DNA from: an uncultured Planctomycetaceae bacterium
GTDB taxonomy: Bacteria > Planctomycetota > Planctomycetia > Planctomycetales > Planctomycetaceae
Length of the DNA: 64,000 nt
Direction: 5' to 3'
NCBI GenBank assembly: GCA_963976765.1
Contig: CAXBME010000009.1
Span: 186,001-250,000 of the forward strand
The notes beneath the pieces are model-generated. The model saw nothing but the letters and a program-made list of their open reading frames with translations, did no database searches and had not been told where the DNA came from. Shown one piece after another: positions 1 to 7,208 of this stretch (the first letter of the stretch is position 1; every line of letters begins with the position of its first letter). Position numbers and translations under genes: made by a program.

Positions 1-528
1 TGCAGCAGTTCCGCCTATTGAGGCGACTGTCGCCTCAGCGTCCTGCCTGGCAACAGCCTGAACGTCATCCAGCGAATAACCTGCTTCTTCAAGTTGTCTC
101 AACCAGGCAATGACAGATCGCGCCTGAAGCAGCGATGTCATGAGCCCAGCCTTCAGGCTTTCGGGGTAAGGGCACTCCCAGAAGTCGCGGTAGTCAGACT
201 CCAGTTGAAGCCGGCACCCTAGTATCAGCGGTCTGTCGTCAGCGAGGACTCCACAGTTTGCGAGCGCGGCCACAAGTTCCGTGTAGTCTTTCTCGCGGTT
301 GCCACGCATCTGCAATAGCGTCTGCACGGAACGGAACGAAAACGTTCTGCCAATGGTCGTCTTGCCGCTCCCTGGAGTACCGCAAATAACAACAGGTCGA
401 TCGTAGAGGTCGCTGTTCTGCGCATGCTTCTCCAGGAATCGCGTGATCGGTTCTGGCGCAACGACGGATAGAAACGCCACGTCGTCTCGAAAATGTTCCG
501 TTGTACGTTTTTTGAACGGATTATCCAT
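1..528 (-). CDS. P-loop ATPase, ORC/CDC6-like or STAND-like (partial, runs off left edge)
   Basis: Not in the ORF track. Manual translation from ATG at 528: MDNPFKKRTTEHFRDD...RPVVICGTPGSGKTTIGR..., open to base 1. Walker A GTPGSGKT. Start overlaps the PRTase stop by 8 nt. Confidence 0.8.
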   Translation of the reverse strand, partial: MDNPFKKRTTEHFRDDVAFLSVVAPEPITRFLEKHAQNSDLYDRPVVICGTPGSGKTTIGRTFSFRSVQTLLQMRGNREKDYTELVAALANCGVLADDRPLILGCRLQLESDYRDFWECPYPESLKAGLMTSLLQARSVIAWLRQLEEAGYSLDDVQAVARQDAEATVASIGGTAA

Positions 529-1663
529 TCAGCACCTGTCCCTGCTTATCCAGGGAATCATCAAGCACGTCGTGCCGCTGTCTTCTGGGAAAGAGCGGCC
601 GCATCTGATGCACGTCCTGATTCCCTGAACTTGTCGCCCACAGAAGAGGAATCGTGTTGTTCGGAGTGTTGTGGTCGAGAATGACGGGCAGTCGGCTGTC
701 GCCGTAGCCAAACATCATTGATTCGCAACCACTTTCACGCACATGCTTCTCTGGCGCGATGGATGCGTCGAAGTGCCTCGAAATCAGATCGAGCACGTCG
801 GCATTCTCTGTTTCTTCCATCCGAATGGACTGCGGCAGCACCATCCCGAACGTGAATTCGGCATCGAACCAGTTGCCCTCAGCGGCACGTTCTGCATGTC
901 TCTGCAATACTGCCTCTCGTGCACGCTGAGTGGCCAGATAATGATGGACGTGAATTCTGACGTCGTCGGAAAGGTGGCTTCCTGCAAACTGCCGCGACTC
1001 GTCCCAGAAACGGCGCAGCTTCCCCTTCCACTTCCCATCCACGAAACGCAACAGGCTGGTTCCGCTTGCGGTAAAGTCGTCAAGTAGAAAGACGAATTCA
1101 AAGCGAGCCTCGGCGTCTCCCAGCTCGTCTTGAAGGTCCTTGAGCAGGTCGTCCCACTTTTCTCTATTAAAACGTGACGTGGTGACAATCTGCTCGTTCG
1201 AGATGGTGCCAGGATTCGCTCGCCGAAACACATCGATGCGCGCACCATCGCTCAGTTCGATAAAGAGGCACTTTCTTTGCAATTTTCCCAATGCATTGCT
1301 GGCCTCTTGATGAACACGAACCTGGTAGTCTGCGATGCCATAACTGTCTGCAACAAACCGTAAGATTTCCGGTCGAAAAAACTCAGGCCAGCTCAGCCCA
1401 ATCAGGTGGTGCATCTCTGCTGTGCTGATGAAGATGAGCTGATCGCGAACGAAGCGGTAAGCCGTTTTACGGTCTTCAAGTGCTCCGAATTGTTGAACCC
1501 AATCCAGCAACCGCTCTGAAAAGCGGGCACCGGCAAGGAAATCCTGATAGCCGTCGTACTTCATCCGCGACATCAGTTCGATACGCGCAAATTCAGCTTG
1601 AGCCGTGTCGTCGTCCCACGACATGACCTCAGCCAGCTTACGGAGAACGTATTGAAGGTTCAT
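521..1663 (-). CDS. Type I phosphoribosyltransferase-fold protein (PRTase-CE-like conflict effector)
   Basis: PRPP-binding loop FLLDDFTASGTS; C-terminal HNTPNNTIPLLW and RPLFPR; 4-nt ATGA overlap with upstream gene. Confidence 0.75.
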   Translation of the reverse strand: MNLQYVLRKLAEVMSWDDDTAQAEFARIELMSRMKYDGYQDFLAGARFSERLLDWVQQFGALEDRKTAYRFVRDQLIFISTAEMHHLIGLSWPEFFRPEILRFVADSYGIADYQVRVHQEASNALGKLQRKCLFIELSDGARIDVFRRANPGTISNEQIVTTSRFNREKWDDLLKDLQDELGDAEARFEFVFLLDDFTASGTSLLRFVDGKWKGKLRRFWDESRQFAGSHLSDDVRIHVHHYLATQRAREAVLQRHAERAAEGNWFDAEFTFGMVLPQSIRMEETENADVLDLISRHFDASIAPEKHVRESGCESMMFGYGDSRLPVILDHNTPNNTIPLLWATSSGNQDVHQMRPLFPRRQRHDVLDDSLDKQGQVLNG

Positions 1664-3603
1664 GGTCGCGGCTTTCGCTTGAGTCGGTTCACATCAATTC
1701 GAAATCGGCCGTCCTTTGCGATCATGGCATTCAAATATACGACTGCTGCCTGCGGTCCCAGGTATCCGGCAGGCGCTACGTTCCAGCCCGAGGCCGAGTC
1801 CGGAGACACCTGTGCGACACTGAGAGAATATGGTTCCGCAAGCAGTTCAAAGTCGTTACCGGGGGCGCACCCGAGGTCACCCACCGTCAATACTGGCTCG
1901 TCATCACCCCACCCATGATTCGCGCTCAGAGCCTCAAGGACAGCCAGCTTAGATACGCCCGAGGCCAGAATGTCGACCGAGTGTGTTGACCAGAGAACTC
2001 TCACACCCGGCACAGCAGCTCCTCTCACGATATCTTCAGCGATTGCTCGAAGTACCGGCGGCGGCGTGCTCGGTTTAGCCTGTAGCGAAATCTGACGTCC
2101 CCGGGTATCGATCTTCGTGACACATGACTTCAGCTGGGGGTCTCGTCGAATGCATCGTTCGATTTCCCGCAATTCGGGACAGGCCTGTTCGTGAGCCGGG
2201 TCGTGTTTTTCTTCCAGACTGACAACGACACTCCCGTTGTAGTATCCGAGCAGTACTTGCGACCATCGATCTGCGGGCACGAACGCCTGCAGGTCTCGAC
2301 GGACTGACCCCCCGCGTCCCGTTGCGATACCGATCTGGATGCCTGCATCGAGGAGAGAGCAGATGCCACTTCGAATCGCATCGGACGGGCCAGTCGTCTT
2401 TTCGAACCGACCGCACAACGTTCCGTCATAATCGAACACGACTGCACGGAAACGCTGCTTGCGAAGTCGACTGAGGAATCCGTCCAACGCAGGCTGTAGA
2501 GAATTCGAATCGCCACACTGGGCACCGGCGCGATGCTTGCGCAACATGGAAATTGCTGGCTGAGCAACGTCAGCAGCAGCAGCCCGGCCTGGTCGCAGGT
2601 TGTAGAGCTTTCGACCGAACCCGGGTACGCCTGGACGCCCCGGGTCGATGCCGCGGGCTCGACCGGCCGATCCGGCAATGTGCATCGCCAGCACAATCCC
2701 CGCAATGCTGACCTCTGCAAGATTCCCATCAATATTCAGTGTCACGCACGGTACATCTTCCGGGATCAGGGCTGATGTGCGTCGTGCCAGTTCCTGATCC
2801 TCATCGGCAACGAGAATCAGTACGGCAGCGTCATCGCCTCGTTTGGCGAGCCAGTGATGTCTTCCGTGAGCAAAATGTCGAAAGTCGCCGAATTGAAGAT
2901 TACCGAGCGCAGCCTCTGTGAACTTGGACTCAAGGTCCCAGGCAGCCGGCAGTAGCGACGTTGAATGAATCACGATCAGATTGCTGCGTTCCCACAATGG
3001 CTGACACAGCACATCGAGTTTTCGCTCCCATCGCCGACCGAGTGAACGAAGAGCAGGCAATCGCGTAATGGTACTGGGAAGCCGCGTCCGGGGAGCGAAA
3101 ACTTCGAGCCATGCCCTCGTGATTAGTACGGAGAAGGCAAGGAGTGAATTCGTTGCGAGGAAGCCATCGCGACCCGCCGGAAAGTCGCATTCCAGCAGAT
3201 CAACGTACTGATGGTTCCCGGAACGATCGGCCAGCTTGCTATCGGGCCGACCGACGATCGCAGAGAGTGCATCGGGCTCGCGTACGACAAGATGACGGAA
3301 GACATCAAGAATGTCCCCGTTCCCACCACCTGCACTCAGCAGGAGATACGCCGTTTCGCGGAGGACATCATCGTCCTGTCGAACGTCCAGTGGCGTCGCG
3401 GCCCTGGCGTTTCTGGACGCGAGCCGGCGATGCAACAGAGCCGCAAGATGCGCCGCAGAGAGCGATCCCCCGGAGCCGATGGCCACGAGCGACTTATCAG
3501 CAGTCGCCGCGACCGCCGAAACGAACCGGTCCAGGTCAAACGAATGGGACCAAGCGTAGGTGTCGCCGAGTAATGCAAGTTCCGTCTCGTATGGTTTTCC
3601 CAA
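1660..3603 (-). CDS. SIS (sugar isomerase) domain + HAD-IIB phosphatase fusion
   Basis: SIS motifs AIGSGGS, LLSAGGGNGD, FAHGRHHW; HAD motifs FDYDGTL, IATGRG, SK, VGD..GND; TTG start with GGAGG RBS. Confidence 0.8.
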   Translation of the reverse strand: MGKPYETELALLGDTYAWSHSFDLDRFVSAVAATADKSLVAIGSGGSLSAAHLAALLHRRLASRNARAATPLDVRQDDDVLRETAYLLLSAGGGNGDILDVFRHLVVREPDALSAIVGRPDSKLADRSGNHQYVDLLECDFPAGRDGFLATNSLLAFSVLITRAWLEVFAPRTRLPSTITRLPALRSLGRRWERKLDVLCQPLWERSNLIVIHSTSLLPAAWDLESKFTEAALGNLQFGDFRHFAHGRHHWLAKRGDDAAVLILVADEDQELARRTSALIPEDVPCVTLNIDGNLAEVSIAGIVLAMHIAGSAGRARGIDPGRPGVPGFGRKLYNLRPGRAAAADVAQPAISMLRKHRAGAQCGDSNSLQPALDGFLSRLRKQRFRAVVFDYDGTLCGRFEKTTGPSDAIRSGICSLLDAGIQIGIATGRGGSVRRDLQAFVPADRWSQVLLGYYNGSVVVSLEEKHDPAHEQACPELREIERCIRRDPQLKSCVTKIDTRGRQISLQAKPSTPPPVLRAIAEDIVRGAAVPGVRVLWSTHSVDILASGVSKLAVLEALSANHGWGDDEPVLTVGDLGCAPGNDFELLAEPYSLSVAQVSPDSASGWNVAPAGYLGPQAAVVYLNAMIAKDGRFRIDVNRLKRKPRP

Positions 3604-3797
3604 TTCGATGCGCCTCCCTGGCAGATTTGGTCGGTTTCACAGAGACGCGAGCAGCAATCGTCGGCCCCTCGTTTCAAGGCCCGGATTCTACGGACGGTTG
3701 GTATTCTGCGTTATCGATCCCGACTGAAGTGTACTGTCTTATACATTACGACTCCAGCAGCCAGGACTGAATCGGGCTCGCATTCCGCCCAATAGTG

Positions 3798-4331
3798 TCA
3801 GCGAGTACCGACACGATAAGCCGCGAATCGAAGAACCGATTCTCTGGATGCGAGTCGGCGGTTGACCTGGGGACGGCGGTTGACAAGTTGCTGTTCTGCA
3901 TCGCGCGGCGTGAGGTTCTGTGAGTGGATCAGCCATGCGAGGGCGATGGTCGCGCTGCGGCCTCGGCCAGCTTTGCAGTGGCAGTAAACGCGTCTGCCTT
4001 GTTCGGCGAAGCGGGCGATGAAGTCGACGCCGTCTCGAACGGCGTTGATATCCGGGGAATTATAGTCCAGAGTCGGCAGATACAGTTGATCAATCTCGGA
4101 GTCATCGTAGTGGGAAGTGTGTCCGTTCCATTCGGCGCACATGTTGATCACACCGCGCACATTCATCTCGTTGAAGCGAGACAGCTCTCGACGCATCGGC
4201 AACGCGCCGAGGATCAGCGTGTCGTCGATTTCAGTCCAGTGTTCTTCCAGCTTCAGACCGCGAGTTTTCAGCAATGTCCAGTAGAGCGTCGGGCGAAAAA
4301 GGAGCCGGCTCGCCATGGGCATTAGTTTCAT
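3798..4331 (-). CDS. Dual-specificity phosphatase, PTPMT1-like
   Basis: CX5R loop VYCHCKAGRGRSAT; N-terminal RLLFRPTLYW and ILGALP resemble PTPMT1 lipid phosphatases. Confidence 0.85.
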   Translation of the reverse strand: MKLMPMASRLLFRPTLYWTLLKTRGLKLEEHWTEIDDTLILGALPMRRELSRFNEMNVRGVINMCAEWNGHTSHYDDSEIDQLYLPTLDYNSPDINAVRDGVDFIARFAEQGRRVYCHCKAGRGRSATIALAWLIHSQNLTPRDAEQQLVNRRPQVNRRLASRESVLRFAAYRVGTR

Positions 4332-4375
4332 TCGAATGTCTCCTTTCGTCTCATAATCTCGTCGACTCGCCTCGA

Positions 4376-6202
4376 TTATGTATCTGCCGATGCCCGTTCC
4401 GTACGATCGCCGCCTGAAGACAAGTCGTTTGATGCCTGACTGGCGCCAGGTAGCAAAGCATCACTGGGGCCGAGATCGAGTAGCAACGTGTTGCCTCGTT
4501 CTTCCAGCACTGTGAATTGACTTCGCAATTCGGTTTCAAAACCGGGAACATGATTAAGGTAGGATCGCTCGGCTACGAAGTATCTGGCCCCGCGTTGCTT
4601 GTAGTCCTGGATTTGCTCCATCGACTGATATTCGTCGTTCAGGATGAATCCTTTGCGATTCATCCAGAAAAAGAAATACGGGCAATCCGACGCTCGCAGA
4701 AGCCCGTGTTGATCGACCTTGCTGTCGCCACCAACAATGATTAGCCCGGCAGCATTCGTGCGTTCGGAGAATGAAACGGCCATCTCGTAGGTCTTTGCAA
4801 AGTCACGAGGGTTCGCATCACGCTGAATTACGAAAATCTGTGCTCCGATTACTGCGAGAAAACATGCGAGAAACAACTTCCGACACGGGACGAGCAACCC
4901 AGGTCGTACTCCAGACCAACCAGACTTCAAAGAATCTTCGAATTCGATAAACAGTCCGGCTGTGGCAGCGACTGCCCCGATCAGCAGCGCGATTCGTGAC
5001 AGCGGCCCGATCATGCCTGCGTTGACTTCACCCGCCACGAAGGCCAGGCCGGCTGCTGCAACTACACAGACACACATACGCCGCGTTATCCGCATGTGTG
5101 TGCAACACACGGCGTGATAGCCCAGGCCGATCAGTATGGCTGCCAGTGGGGTACTGACGATGTGGTAGTACGCGGCCCAGTTCTCACCGGTTGTTCGTCC
5201 AGTCACAACGAAAAACGCAGCGAGGGCCACAAACCAGTACACCAACGGTCGTGACGGTTCCGACTTCCGAGCGTCCCTCAGACCAAGCATCCCGAAGAAT
5301 AATCCAGCGCCCAGCCAGATGTGCGCTGACTGTATCGAAATCACACCGGGAATGGTCTCCCAGAGCGTCATCAGGAAGTTGCCAGTCGAGATTCGTTCGT
5401 AAGCTTCATTCGAAATGCCCAGCGAATTGCCATACTGAAGCCAGAGCGTGTGGGCATGCGAGTACCACGCCAGTGGAAGACCGAGTGAAATGATACCAAA
5501 CAGCCAGATTTCTCGGCGTCGAAAGACGCTCATTCCAAACTTCTGGAAGCACAGGCACGCGAACAGAATTCCTACGTGTGCCGCTGGCACTTTCGCGAGG
5601 ATCGCCAGCGTTGTGGCCAACAAAGCAACCACGTAGTCGCTTCGGATGCCATGATCGATCCAGCGAATGAAGGCGTCGATTGCCAGCAGGTAGGCGAAGA
5701 ACATTAAAGGCTCTGGTTGAACTGCAGACGCCAGCTGCACGGCCATCGGACTGAGCGCGAAGATCGTCCACGCCGGTATCACTGCTGCTCGCGGCAGAAG
5801 CCGTTTCGCCAGCCGCAGGAATATCAGGCAGCTTGCCAGAGACAGCACGTACGACAGGACACGCAGTATCTCTTCGTGGTAACCGAAAACGTGGTAGAGA
5901 CACGCTGCCGTCCACGGGAAGAGAGGAAATTCCGACTCGACGTATCCCGGACCATCGCCTCGCCAGTCGATGCGAGGCATGAAGATGTTCATGTCCTCGT
6001 GATAGTAGTTTCTAGCGATCGCTCCAGTGTCCGTTTCTCGCCACGACTGTCGGACAGAGCCATCAATGGGTCGCCAGACGTCAATCGCCCGCACACAAGC
6101 GGCGACGACGAACAGAGCGATGATTACTCTGCGAAACCAGGGGTTGTTGTTTTCCTCTGTGGCGACACGCGATGCGTTCTGTTTCGATTCATCAGTCATC
6201 AC
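4376..6202 (-). CDS. GT-C fold membrane glycosyltransferase (ArnT/PMT family)
   Basis: Many TM helices; first-loop WRETDT..IARNY and ESEFPLFPW; LAILAKVP motif. Confidence 0.85.
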   Translation of the reverse strand: MMTDESKQNASRVATEENNNPWFRRVIIALFVVAACVRAIDVWRPIDGSVRQSWRETDTGAIARNYYHEDMNIFMPRIDWRGDGPGYVESEFPLFPWTAACLYHVFGYHEEILRVLSYVLSLASCLIFLRLAKRLLPRAAVIPAWTIFALSPMAVQLASAVQPEPLMFFAYLLAIDAFIRWIDHGIRSDYVVALLATTLAILAKVPAAHVGILFACLCFQKFGMSVFRRREIWLFGIISLGLPLAWYSHAHTLWLQYGNSLGISNEAYERISTGNFLMTLWETIPGVISIQSAHIWLGAGLFFGMLGLRDARKSEPSRPLVYWFVALAAFFVVTGRTTGENWAAYYHIVSTPLAAILIGLGYHAVCCTHMRITRRMCVCVVAAAGLAFVAGEVNAGMIGPLSRIALLIGAVAATAGLFIEFEDSLKSGWSGVRPGLLVPCRKLFLACFLAVIGAQIFVIQRDANPRDFAKTYEMAVSFSERTNAAGLIIVGGDSKVDQHGLLRASDCPYFFFWMNRKGFILNDEYQSMEQIQDYKQRGARYFVAERSYLNHVPGFETELRSQFTVLEERGNTLLLDLGPSDALLPGASQASNDLSSGGDRTERASADT

Positions 6203-6251
6203 TTACGGCCCTCAGCCAGCAAAAATACGGAGATTGGAAGCTTGTAGATCA

Positions 6252-7208
6252 CTAATGGATTTGGAGCGCCCACCAGGGCAGCCAATCGGTCGGCGCGTAG
6301 ACGATGGCACAGATAGAAAATGCCCACAGGGCTCCGTTAATCAGCGTTGGGCGATCGGTCACAAACAGCTTCGACGGATCGCCGCCTTCGGTGCGAAGAT
6401 GGACCAGGTAAAAGAATCGAAAGATGCCGTACATCACGAACGGCGTAGTCGCCATCAGCAGTTGCGTTTCGAAACGCGTTACCGTCTGGTCAGCGACGGT
6501 GTAGAGCGCGTAGCTGACAAGGGCGGATGCACCAGACACGGCCATCATCAGATCGAGGAACTGCTGCGAGTATCCGGCCAGGCAACTGCGATGCTTTGTG
6601 GCGTCGTCACTGAGTGAGACCAGTTCATGGCGGCGTTTGCCGAATCCGACAAAGACGGCCAGTGTCATCGTGCAGAGCACGATCCACGGTGACGGAACGG
6701 TCGCAATGACGATCGTTCCGGCGACGGCCCGCAGTACGAATCCACTGGCAATGCACATCACATCCAGAATCGGCTGCTGCTTAAGCGAGAACGTGTAGGC
6801 CACGTTGAGAGTCAGGTAAATTGAAATGAGGAGTCCGAACGAGATGCCAAGATGAAATCCGCCAGCGACGACTATGACCACTAGAGCCAGCATCGCAGTG
6901 ACAGCCAACCGCGGACTCAGGTCTCCGGACGCCAGGGGTCGCAGACGTTTCTTCGGATGCTGCCGATCGTTCTCGATGTCGCGCAGGTCATTCAGAAGAT
7001 AGACGGCACTCGACGCAAAGCAAAACAGGAAGAATCCCTGAATCGAGAGAAGAAGCAGGCTGAAATCGAACAGTGACCTGGAAAAGATCAGCCCACCGAA
7101 CAACAGGAGGTTTTTAACCCACTGATGCGGACGCATGGCTCGGGCGAGAGCACGTGTGGCCGGGATCATCTTTGAGCCAGCCGATGCCTGAATGGTTTGT
7201 GTGCTCAT
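6252..7208 (-). CDS. Polyprenyl-phosphate phosphoribosyltransferase (UbiA family, DPPR-synthase-like)
   Basis: RPHQWVKN, YLLNDLRDIENDRQHPKKRLRPLASG, GFVLRAVAG, GKRRHE. Confidence 0.9.
   Translation of the reverse strand: MSTQTIQASAGSKMIPATRALARAMRPHQWVKNLLLFGGLIFSRSLFDFSLLLLSIQGFFLFCFASSAVYLLNDLRDIENDRQHPKKRLRPLASGDLSPRLAVTAMLALVVIVVAGGFHLGISFGLLISIYLTLNVAYTFSLKQQPILDVMCIASGFVLRAVAGTIVIATVPSPWIVLCTMTLAVFVGFGKRRHELVSLSDDATKHRSCLAGYSQQFLDLMMAVSGASALVSYALYTVADQTVTRFETQLLMATTPFVMYGIFRFFYLVHLRTEGGDPSKLFVTDRPTLINGALWAFSICAIVYAPTDWLPWWALQIH

Follow-up and report, generated by a model that had tools for sequence, protein, structure and literature searches.

A five-gene planctomycete operon joining a PRTase-CE, an ORC/CDC6-like ATPase and a tandem CARF protein to sugar-phosphate enzymes: a candidate defence system

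What could a bacterium gain from an operon in which a phosphoribosyltransferase (PRTase) and an ATPase are encoded together with enzymes of sugar-phosphate chemistry? This question is raised by the left end of a stretch of 64,000 nucleotides from an uncultured Planctomycetaceae bacterium (G000:C9:186001-250000, the window), for which an earlier note had described a three-gene operon as a candidate defence system. The three minus-strand genes are real (1660-3603, 521-1663 and <1-528), with overlaps as described there. Gene 1 (1660..3603) starts with TTG and encodes a SIS-HAD fusion of 647 amino acids, gene 2 (521..1663) encodes a PRTase-CE protein of 380 amino acids, both assigned from sequence and profiles, and gene 3 encodes an ORC/CDC6-like (STAND-type) ATPase, whose 5' part occupies 1..528 and which, as the note had said, runs past the window edge; the left flank completes it (G000:C9:184597-186528, 643 amino acids). 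However, two of the five genes had been missed, both on the same strand to the left of the window: gene 4, for a stand-alone tandem CARF protein of the CARF6 group (G000:C9:183482-184600, L001:11482-12600, 372 amino acids), and gene 5, for a PfkB-family kinase (G000:C9:182379-183485, L001:10379-11485, 368 amino acids). Neighbouring genes overlap throughout (SIS-HAD/PRTase by 4 nucleotides, PRTase/ATPase by 8, ATPase/CARF and CARF/PfkB by 4 each), and all five are single-copy in the host genome. We consider it likely that this unit is an anti-phage defence system; that a CARF-gated ATPase switches on a PRTase consuming phosphoribosyl pyrophosphate (PRPP), with the sugar enzymes as a clean-up module, is a tentative proposal for its wiring.

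The defence role is supported by the patchy, mobile distribution of the unit, by the lack of conserved metabolic neighbours, by flanks enriched in defence genes and by a PRTase that belongs to the family of the Retron-Eco11 effector. Of 401 genomes from the host phylum, only 3 carry the CARF gene, and none of 30 relatives of the host, 7 of its genus among these, has the ATPase gene; the named hosts include members of Planctomycetota, Pseudomonadota, Acidobacteriota, Actinomycetota, Bacteroidota and Chloroflexota. The same 19 plasmid records match CARF, ATPase, PRTase and SIS-HAD, to which SIS-HAD adds one degenerate homologue and the PRTase four further matches (one close remnant and three distant); among IMG/VR contigs, three match CARF and four SIS-HAD, and SIS-HAD was not found in GenBank phages. 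When 750 flanking open reading frames (ORFs) were clustered, only NADAR and a helix-turn-helix (HTH) protein were strongly recurrent, the other recurring genes being mostly integrases, transposases, relaxases and methylases present in two to four loci each, and the clusters held no conserved metabolic neighbour and no transporter gene of the kind found in frl-type catabolic operons. The conserved sugar or nucleotide metabolic operon that the earlier note had named as evidence against defence was looked for in these flanks and not found. At an E-value of 1e-10, PADLOC models matched 42 of 224 flanking proteins (from 236 selected) versus 9 of 105 control ORFs of the host genome (from 108; p 0.011). 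After generic kinases, helicases, TniQ, ThiF, DprA and weak matches had been removed by eye, 22 of 224 flank proteins, in 15 loci, remained versus 2 of 105 controls (p 0.006), with Gabija, DISARM, Wadjet, Avs2, BREX and type I restriction-modification among them. As evidence for defence this enrichment is moderate, and several points limit what it can carry: it is modest in size (~10% of flank proteins), its control comes from one genome, the ORFs were called mechanically and sorted by eye, methylases are common in mobile DNA anyway, and next to the window's copy lie transposon and envelope genes and no defence island.

The same observations bear on the view that the unit is a metabolic or stress operon, devoted to sugar-amine catabolism or glycation repair under the regulation of the ATPase and CARF proteins, with no anti-phage role. 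Such an operon would agree with the pairing of PfkB and a tandem SIS, which is the FrlD/FrlB arrangement, with the annotation of homologues as sucrose-6-phosphate hydrolase or fructokinase, and with one plasmid on which a lone homologue of gene 1 (L203:5116-6810), its HAD motifs intact and SIS catalytic motifs lacking, adjoins a sugar ABC transporter operon. We regard this explanation as improbable, given that the operon has no transporter or conserved metabolic neighbour, occurs in <1% of the phylum's genomes and travels as cargo on transposons and plasmids, that the PRTase-CE, ORC/CDC6-like and CARF6 proteins belong to families associated with conflict, and that insertion sequences (IS) disrupt it in 4 of 80 loci.

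A comparison of loci revealed that the unit is built from two modules. The best 80 of 284 loci were examined in the GTDB set and 80 of 490 in a distant clade. All five genes occur together in 69 of the 80 GTDB loci (68 counted by script, plus L028, in which CARF and PfkB share one frame), the other 11 comprising 8 cut by contig ends and 3 broken, and in all 36 distant loci with room for them. The order PRTase-ATPase-CARF is constant in every intact locus, and SIS-HAD and PfkB are placed before, after or around this triad, with 50 loci in the window's order and 16 with SIS-HAD after CARF. Pairwise divergence over 42 loci gave partial r values of 0.53, 0.38 and 0.37 within the triad and 0.73 for SIS-HAD/PfkB, against 0.14 or less across modules. 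NADAR often accompanies the SIS-HAD/PfkB module; it adjoins 27 of the 80 loci, including 16 of 16 with SIS-HAD after CARF, and lies inside the operon in both plasmid variants without PfkB. Plasmids of Rhizobium tumorigenes (L200:8001-22663) and Sinorhizobium meliloti (L201:3003-15180) each carry two divergent triads and a single HTH-NADAR-SIS-HAD-PfkB set, with identities between the paired triads of 24% for the ATPases, 27-28% for the CARFs and 36-37% for the PRTases. On these plasmids the presumed effector is thus conserved, the presumed sensors are divergent and one putative clean-up set is common to both triads. A patatin-like gene lies between the two triads of L200.

Which of these proteins acts as the effector? 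Gene 2 matches PF24390 (PRTase-CE; E 7.8e-18, 65.7 bits versus a cut-off of 27) and the PADLOC retron PRTase_III-A model (E 1.9e-16), and has 2092 relatives at E 0.001. Its PRPP loop DDFTASGTS, a motif already pointed out in the earlier note, was located at 1081-1055; a DDFxxSG-type loop is kept in 107 of 114 homologues and a G-x14-PNN motif in 113. The structure model (pLDDT 91) has a type I PRTase fold: the top 18 rows of the VIA comparison are PRTases, some uncharacterised proteins among them, with UPRTase as the best match (Z 8.8, root-mean-square deviation (rmsd) 3.6, 146 aligned). The G-x14-PNN motif has been reported for retron PRTases, and the PRTase effector of Retron-Eco11 depletes PRPP, its activation halving the pool, according to the available text of PMC12746101. 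In ShosTA, the toxin contains a PRTase and a hydrolase domain, and PRPP binding is reported as needed for toxicity (PMC12961424, available in part). By likeness to these two systems, the PRTase is most likely the effector of the operon. In one distant plasmid match, a PRTase-like gene adjoins a reverse transcriptase.

Alternatively, the PRTase might be a synthase within a defence or conflict system, producing either a new phosphoribosylated nucleotide to which CARF responds or a toxic nucleoside analogue or a mark on DNA or protein, while the sugar enzymes modify or break down the product. PRTases build N-ribosyl-phosphate bonds, and apart from the PRTase the operon encodes no synthase that could supply a CARF ligand, no nuclease and no membrane effector. 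We consider this role unlikely, since no further effector is present for the signal to drive, the related retron PRTase is itself a toxic, PRPP-depleting effector, and the tolerated CARF insertions, described below, speak against CARF as a guard that restrains a toxin.

For the control of this presumed effector, the ATPase and CARF proteins come into play. The ATPase matches PF24389 (ORC-CDC6-like; E 9.6e-13, 48.1 bits versus a cut-off of 27) and carries an NPF motif, the Walker A motif GTPGSGKT (381-358, likewise as in the earlier note) and the Walker B motif DDAH, with G53, G55, K56, D241 and D242 conserved in 98-100% of 123 homologues. Gene 4 was assigned to CARF6 by PADLOC (PDLC01916, E 8e-101). 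Its model (pLDDT 94) has CARF-type proteins in the top 21 VIA rows, the double-CARF protein Can1 being the best match (Z 14.7, rmsd 3.2, 231 aligned), and its conserved residues (GFDxR, D129/D133 and S307/K312) suggest a ligand pocket. A sequence search of the PDB matched the ATPase with P-loop fragments only and gave no significant match for the CARF family. Among the best 150 of 853 CARF clusters (50% identity) no effector-domain fusion was present, the longest member having 572 amino acids, and CARF relatives with other effectors were looked for in the distant clade and not found. A PRTase-CARF fusion in L036, considered as a Rosetta-stone case, was rejected; it has neither the ATPase nor the PNN end of the PRTase.

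The modelled ATPase-CARF complex had an ipSAE of 0.81, the best of three controls having 0.00; of 157 solved complexes 116 attain the mark used, as do 2 of 215 mismatched pairs, counts that apply only roughly here, where our own alignments were used. At least 91% of contacts agree between runs and the pLDDT of the partners is at least 85. The predicted CARF contact, which supports binding, falls for the most part on residues 110-118, 137-144, 184-198 and 245-248 of the ATPase, in the stretch that separates the Walker motifs and shortly beyond them. The earlier note had made the ATPase alone the sensor of infection, a role that is better given to the tandem CARF protein as the likely sensor, which is predicted to dock on it. 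Independent IS insertions break the CARF gene in L024, L027 and L049 and the ATPase gene in L078. Because the three CARF-disrupted loci keep the PRTase and ATPase motifs intact, CARF loss appears to be tolerated, as for an activator.

The second module raises the question of what sugar chemistry has to do with such a switch. The HAD domain of gene 1 scores above the cut-off of PF08282, and its HAD-IIB motifs (D391-x-D393, K552 and GD..GND) are all invariant in 111 homologues. In this single protein the SIS half has no Pfam match; its family profile matches tandem-SIS structures of the glucosamine-6-phosphate deaminase/GlmS type (E 5e-7), which together with the HAD assignment upholds the fusion as first described, and 8 of 67 family members match NagB-II. 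A GSGGS motif is present, E230 and H246 are invariant in the 111 homologues, and 108 of them keep Glu and His 16 apart (Glu-x15-His). In GlmS and FrlB the catalytic Glu and His are exactly 16 apart, as stated in the available part of PMC10285752. Since this catalytic pair and its spacing are kept, the SIS domain is probably an enzyme (a deglycase or isomerase) and not only a sugar-phosphate binder. The proposal of the earlier note that SIS-HAD acts as reset or antitoxin fits the logic of the module and its frequent NADAR partner, but the mere binding ascribed to SIS agrees poorly with the retained catalytic residues. Among the Atlas structure neighbours of the SIS domain are proteins in which it is fused to ADP-ribosylglycohydrolase or to PfkB, which we note as a lead only. 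Gene 5 matches PF00294 (PfkB; E 2.9e-17) with an intact GAGD motif and a CxxC insertion, and its closest solved relatives are ketohexokinases and fructokinases. In 82 of 112 homologues, Cys pairs occur in the lid insertion (residues 118-121) and in the C-terminal tail, which suggests a zinc site, unusual among PfkB kinases. NADAR is described as a ribosyl N-glycosidase (PMC9503650, available in part). Like SIS, PfkB and HAD, it would fit chemistry on a ribosyl-phosphate or a sugar-amine.

We therefore propose, tentatively, a horizontally spread system of the abortive-infection type. The tandem CARF would bind a nucleotide ligand linked to infection and, seated on an insertion between Walker A and B, would switch the ATPase, which would then activate the PRTase-CE, presumably by contact. 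The PRTase would consume PRPP or cleave nucleotides, giving ribose-5-phosphate or N-(5-phosphoribosyl) adducts, so that the nucleotide and NAD supply stalls. HAD and PfkB would determine whether the ribosyl product is phosphorylated, with HAD removing the phosphate, and the SIS enzyme could cleave an Amadori-type sugar-amine, as FrlD/FrlB do for fructoselysine; in the many copies with NADAR, this enzyme would hydrolyse the N-glycoside directly, and the cell would be reset or protected. We infer that the accessory enzymes erase the PRTase product; in favour of such a clean-up role, one module serves two triads that differ less in their presumed effectors than in their presumed sensors, and in the three loci where IS insertions independently hit CARF the other catalytic motifs are undamaged. 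A more specific version, which would amount to an immune pathway of a new class and in which the effector-less CARF senses a nucleotide made independently of any cyclase and gates the ATPase, the PRTase phosphoribosylates amines as a glycation-like mark on metabolites, proteins or nucleic acid, and a set of kinase, phosphatase, deglycase and N-glycosidase erases it, seems to us unlikely to hold in all its parts.

The sugar module might instead work upstream: SIS-HAD and PfkB, with NADAR where present, would turn a phage-generated fragment (a modified, glycosylated or ribosylated nucleotide) into the CARF ligand that triggers the ATPase and the PRTase. This arrangement would account for the missing cyclase and for the tolerated loss of PfkB or CARF, a kinase and a phosphatase could write and erase the signal, and in seven distant loci (L115-L118 and L123-L125, e.g. 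L117:3648-4265) the gene directly ahead of the PRTase encodes a dCTP-deaminase/dUTPase-like protein whose C-terminus is hydrophobic. We hold it to be unlikely, as one module would have to feed two redundant sensors, the CARFs that are 27-28% identical, and as the N-glycosidase and sugar-amine-cleaving chemistry matches the bond made by a PRTase.

The clean-up proposal itself has to bear several adverse findings. The operon encodes no cyclase, hence no evident source of a CARF ligand, and no nuclease. NADAR is absent from the host genome and from 80 of 80 distant-clade loci, and PfkB is missing in two plasmid variants and truncated in L009, where the triad is intact; each is dispensable in some loci, therefore neither can be an essential antidote. 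The best matches of the SIS profile are glucosamine-6-phosphate deaminases (NagB-II), FrlB-type entries being weaker (E 0.42-0.59), and calling SIS a deglycase is a guess, a choice within the family. As to folds, the Z of 8.8 of the PRTase model barely exceeds background, Foldseek gave no match for this model at E 0.001, and for CARF it put USP-like tandem domains above CARFs, at rmsd ~18 Å. Elsewhere in the host genome, a SMODS nucleotidyltransferase gene (G000:C31:66217-66603, possible CBASS) might in principle act in trans as a source of cyclic nucleotides.

How far is this unit already known? The PRTase-CE/ORC-CDC6 pairing was reportedly defined computationally by Nicastro et al. in 2023, and the CARF6 group is said to have been defined, also computationally, by Makarova et al. 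in 2020; either paper or its supplements may show the operon. The operon has the same two families (PF24390 and PF24389), adjacent and co-diverging, and differs from that pairing in adding the tandem CARF, SIS-HAD, PfkB and NADAR. With Retron type III-A3 (Retron-Eco11) it shares the PRTase-CE family, the PRPP loop and the G-x14-PNN motif, whereas its PRTase lacks an accompanying reverse transcriptase and a C-terminal winged helix, appears to be controlled by the CARF-ATPase pair and comes with an added sugar-phosphate module; no reverse transcriptase was present among conserved flank genes, with one weak match to a DRT model in 224 flank proteins. The type III CRISPR effectors Can1 and Csm6-2 also have two CARF domains in one chain, Can1 being described as a monomer with two CARFs (PMC9704534, available in part), but the CARF of the operon has no nuclease or other effector domain and is predicted to work via the ATPase. 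Neither Cas10 nor a CD-NTase was found in the operon or its conserved flanks, Cas10 not having been searched for genome-wide. ShosTA differs in consisting of two genes with a DprA antitoxin, and in having no CARF, ATPase, SIS or kinase. The FrlD/FrlB and NagB-II/GlmS enzymes offer a PfkB kinase and a tandem SIS with Glu and His 16 apart, whereas in the operon SIS is fused to a HAD phosphatase, tied to a conflict triad and accompanied by no transporter. No named system of PADLOC 2.0 covers the operon; that collection has no SIS-HAD or PfkB model and gave only a weak P-loop match for the ATPase. The literature searched, to which the CARF and PRTase-CE classification papers and all supplements did not belong, gave no description of the five-gene system, nor do the available parts of PMC12839542, PMC4012209, PMC13712802, PMC13092281, PMC11676413, PMC13069673 and bioRxiv 2026.10.19.760177 describe it, although it may be among the candidates tabulated in PMC13092281 and PMC13069673. 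The component families are all known; the CARF-ATPase relay and the deglycase-like module are the new elements of a widespread candidate defence system. The operon, highly conserved and amenable to cloning, joins three open issues, namely the ligands and targets of stand-alone CARF proteins outside CRISPR, the way in which PRTases kill, which is unclear for ShosT and Retron-Eco11, and the presence of glycation-repair-type enzymes in conflict loci. The accessory enzymes hint at the PRTase product, the predicted CARF-ATPase interface supplies residues to mutate, and a CARF-to-ATPase relay without a cyclase, if true, would widen nucleotide signalling in bacterial immunity.

Finally, some details concern the window's copy and its surroundings. 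A Shine-Dalgarno-like AGGGAGG (3613..3619, minus strand) lies 9 nucleotides ahead of the TTG start of gene 1, whose homologues start with MGKP. No sigma-70 promoter match was obtained at the operon, and terminator matches were at about chance level. A 191-amino-acid ORF that follows pfkB gave no Pfam match, has almost no relatives and is probably spurious. The guanine-plus-cytosine content of the operon is 0.571, versus 0.562 for the genome. The copy departs from consensus at ATPase R624Q, CARF R70V and HAD R402K, none of which affects a catalytic motif; ATPase position 624 and CARF position 70 are <93% conserved in the wider homologue set. To the right (window 3798-7208, minus strand) are genes for a dual-specificity phosphatase, a PMT-type glycosyltransferase and a UbiA-family protein, which are envelope-modification genes not conserved with the operon. 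To the left are ThiF and AAA genes and a Tn7-like set with Ku, this set comprising TnsA (PF08722), a Mu-type transposase and TniB/AAA_22, followed by a large HTH protein. The whole region (G000:C9 ~166800-181300; L002:14793-19538 and L001:1-9291) runs from TnsA/TnsB/TnsC and Ku to AAA ATPase, JAB-like and ThiF genes, the middle one of these last three having no Pfam match and being one that we take to be JAB-like from its motif. In L020 and L024 the operon is likewise flanked, in a different placement, by relatives of the AAA/ThiF block, a recurrence that suggests a hotspot for cargo in a mobile element of planctomycetes.

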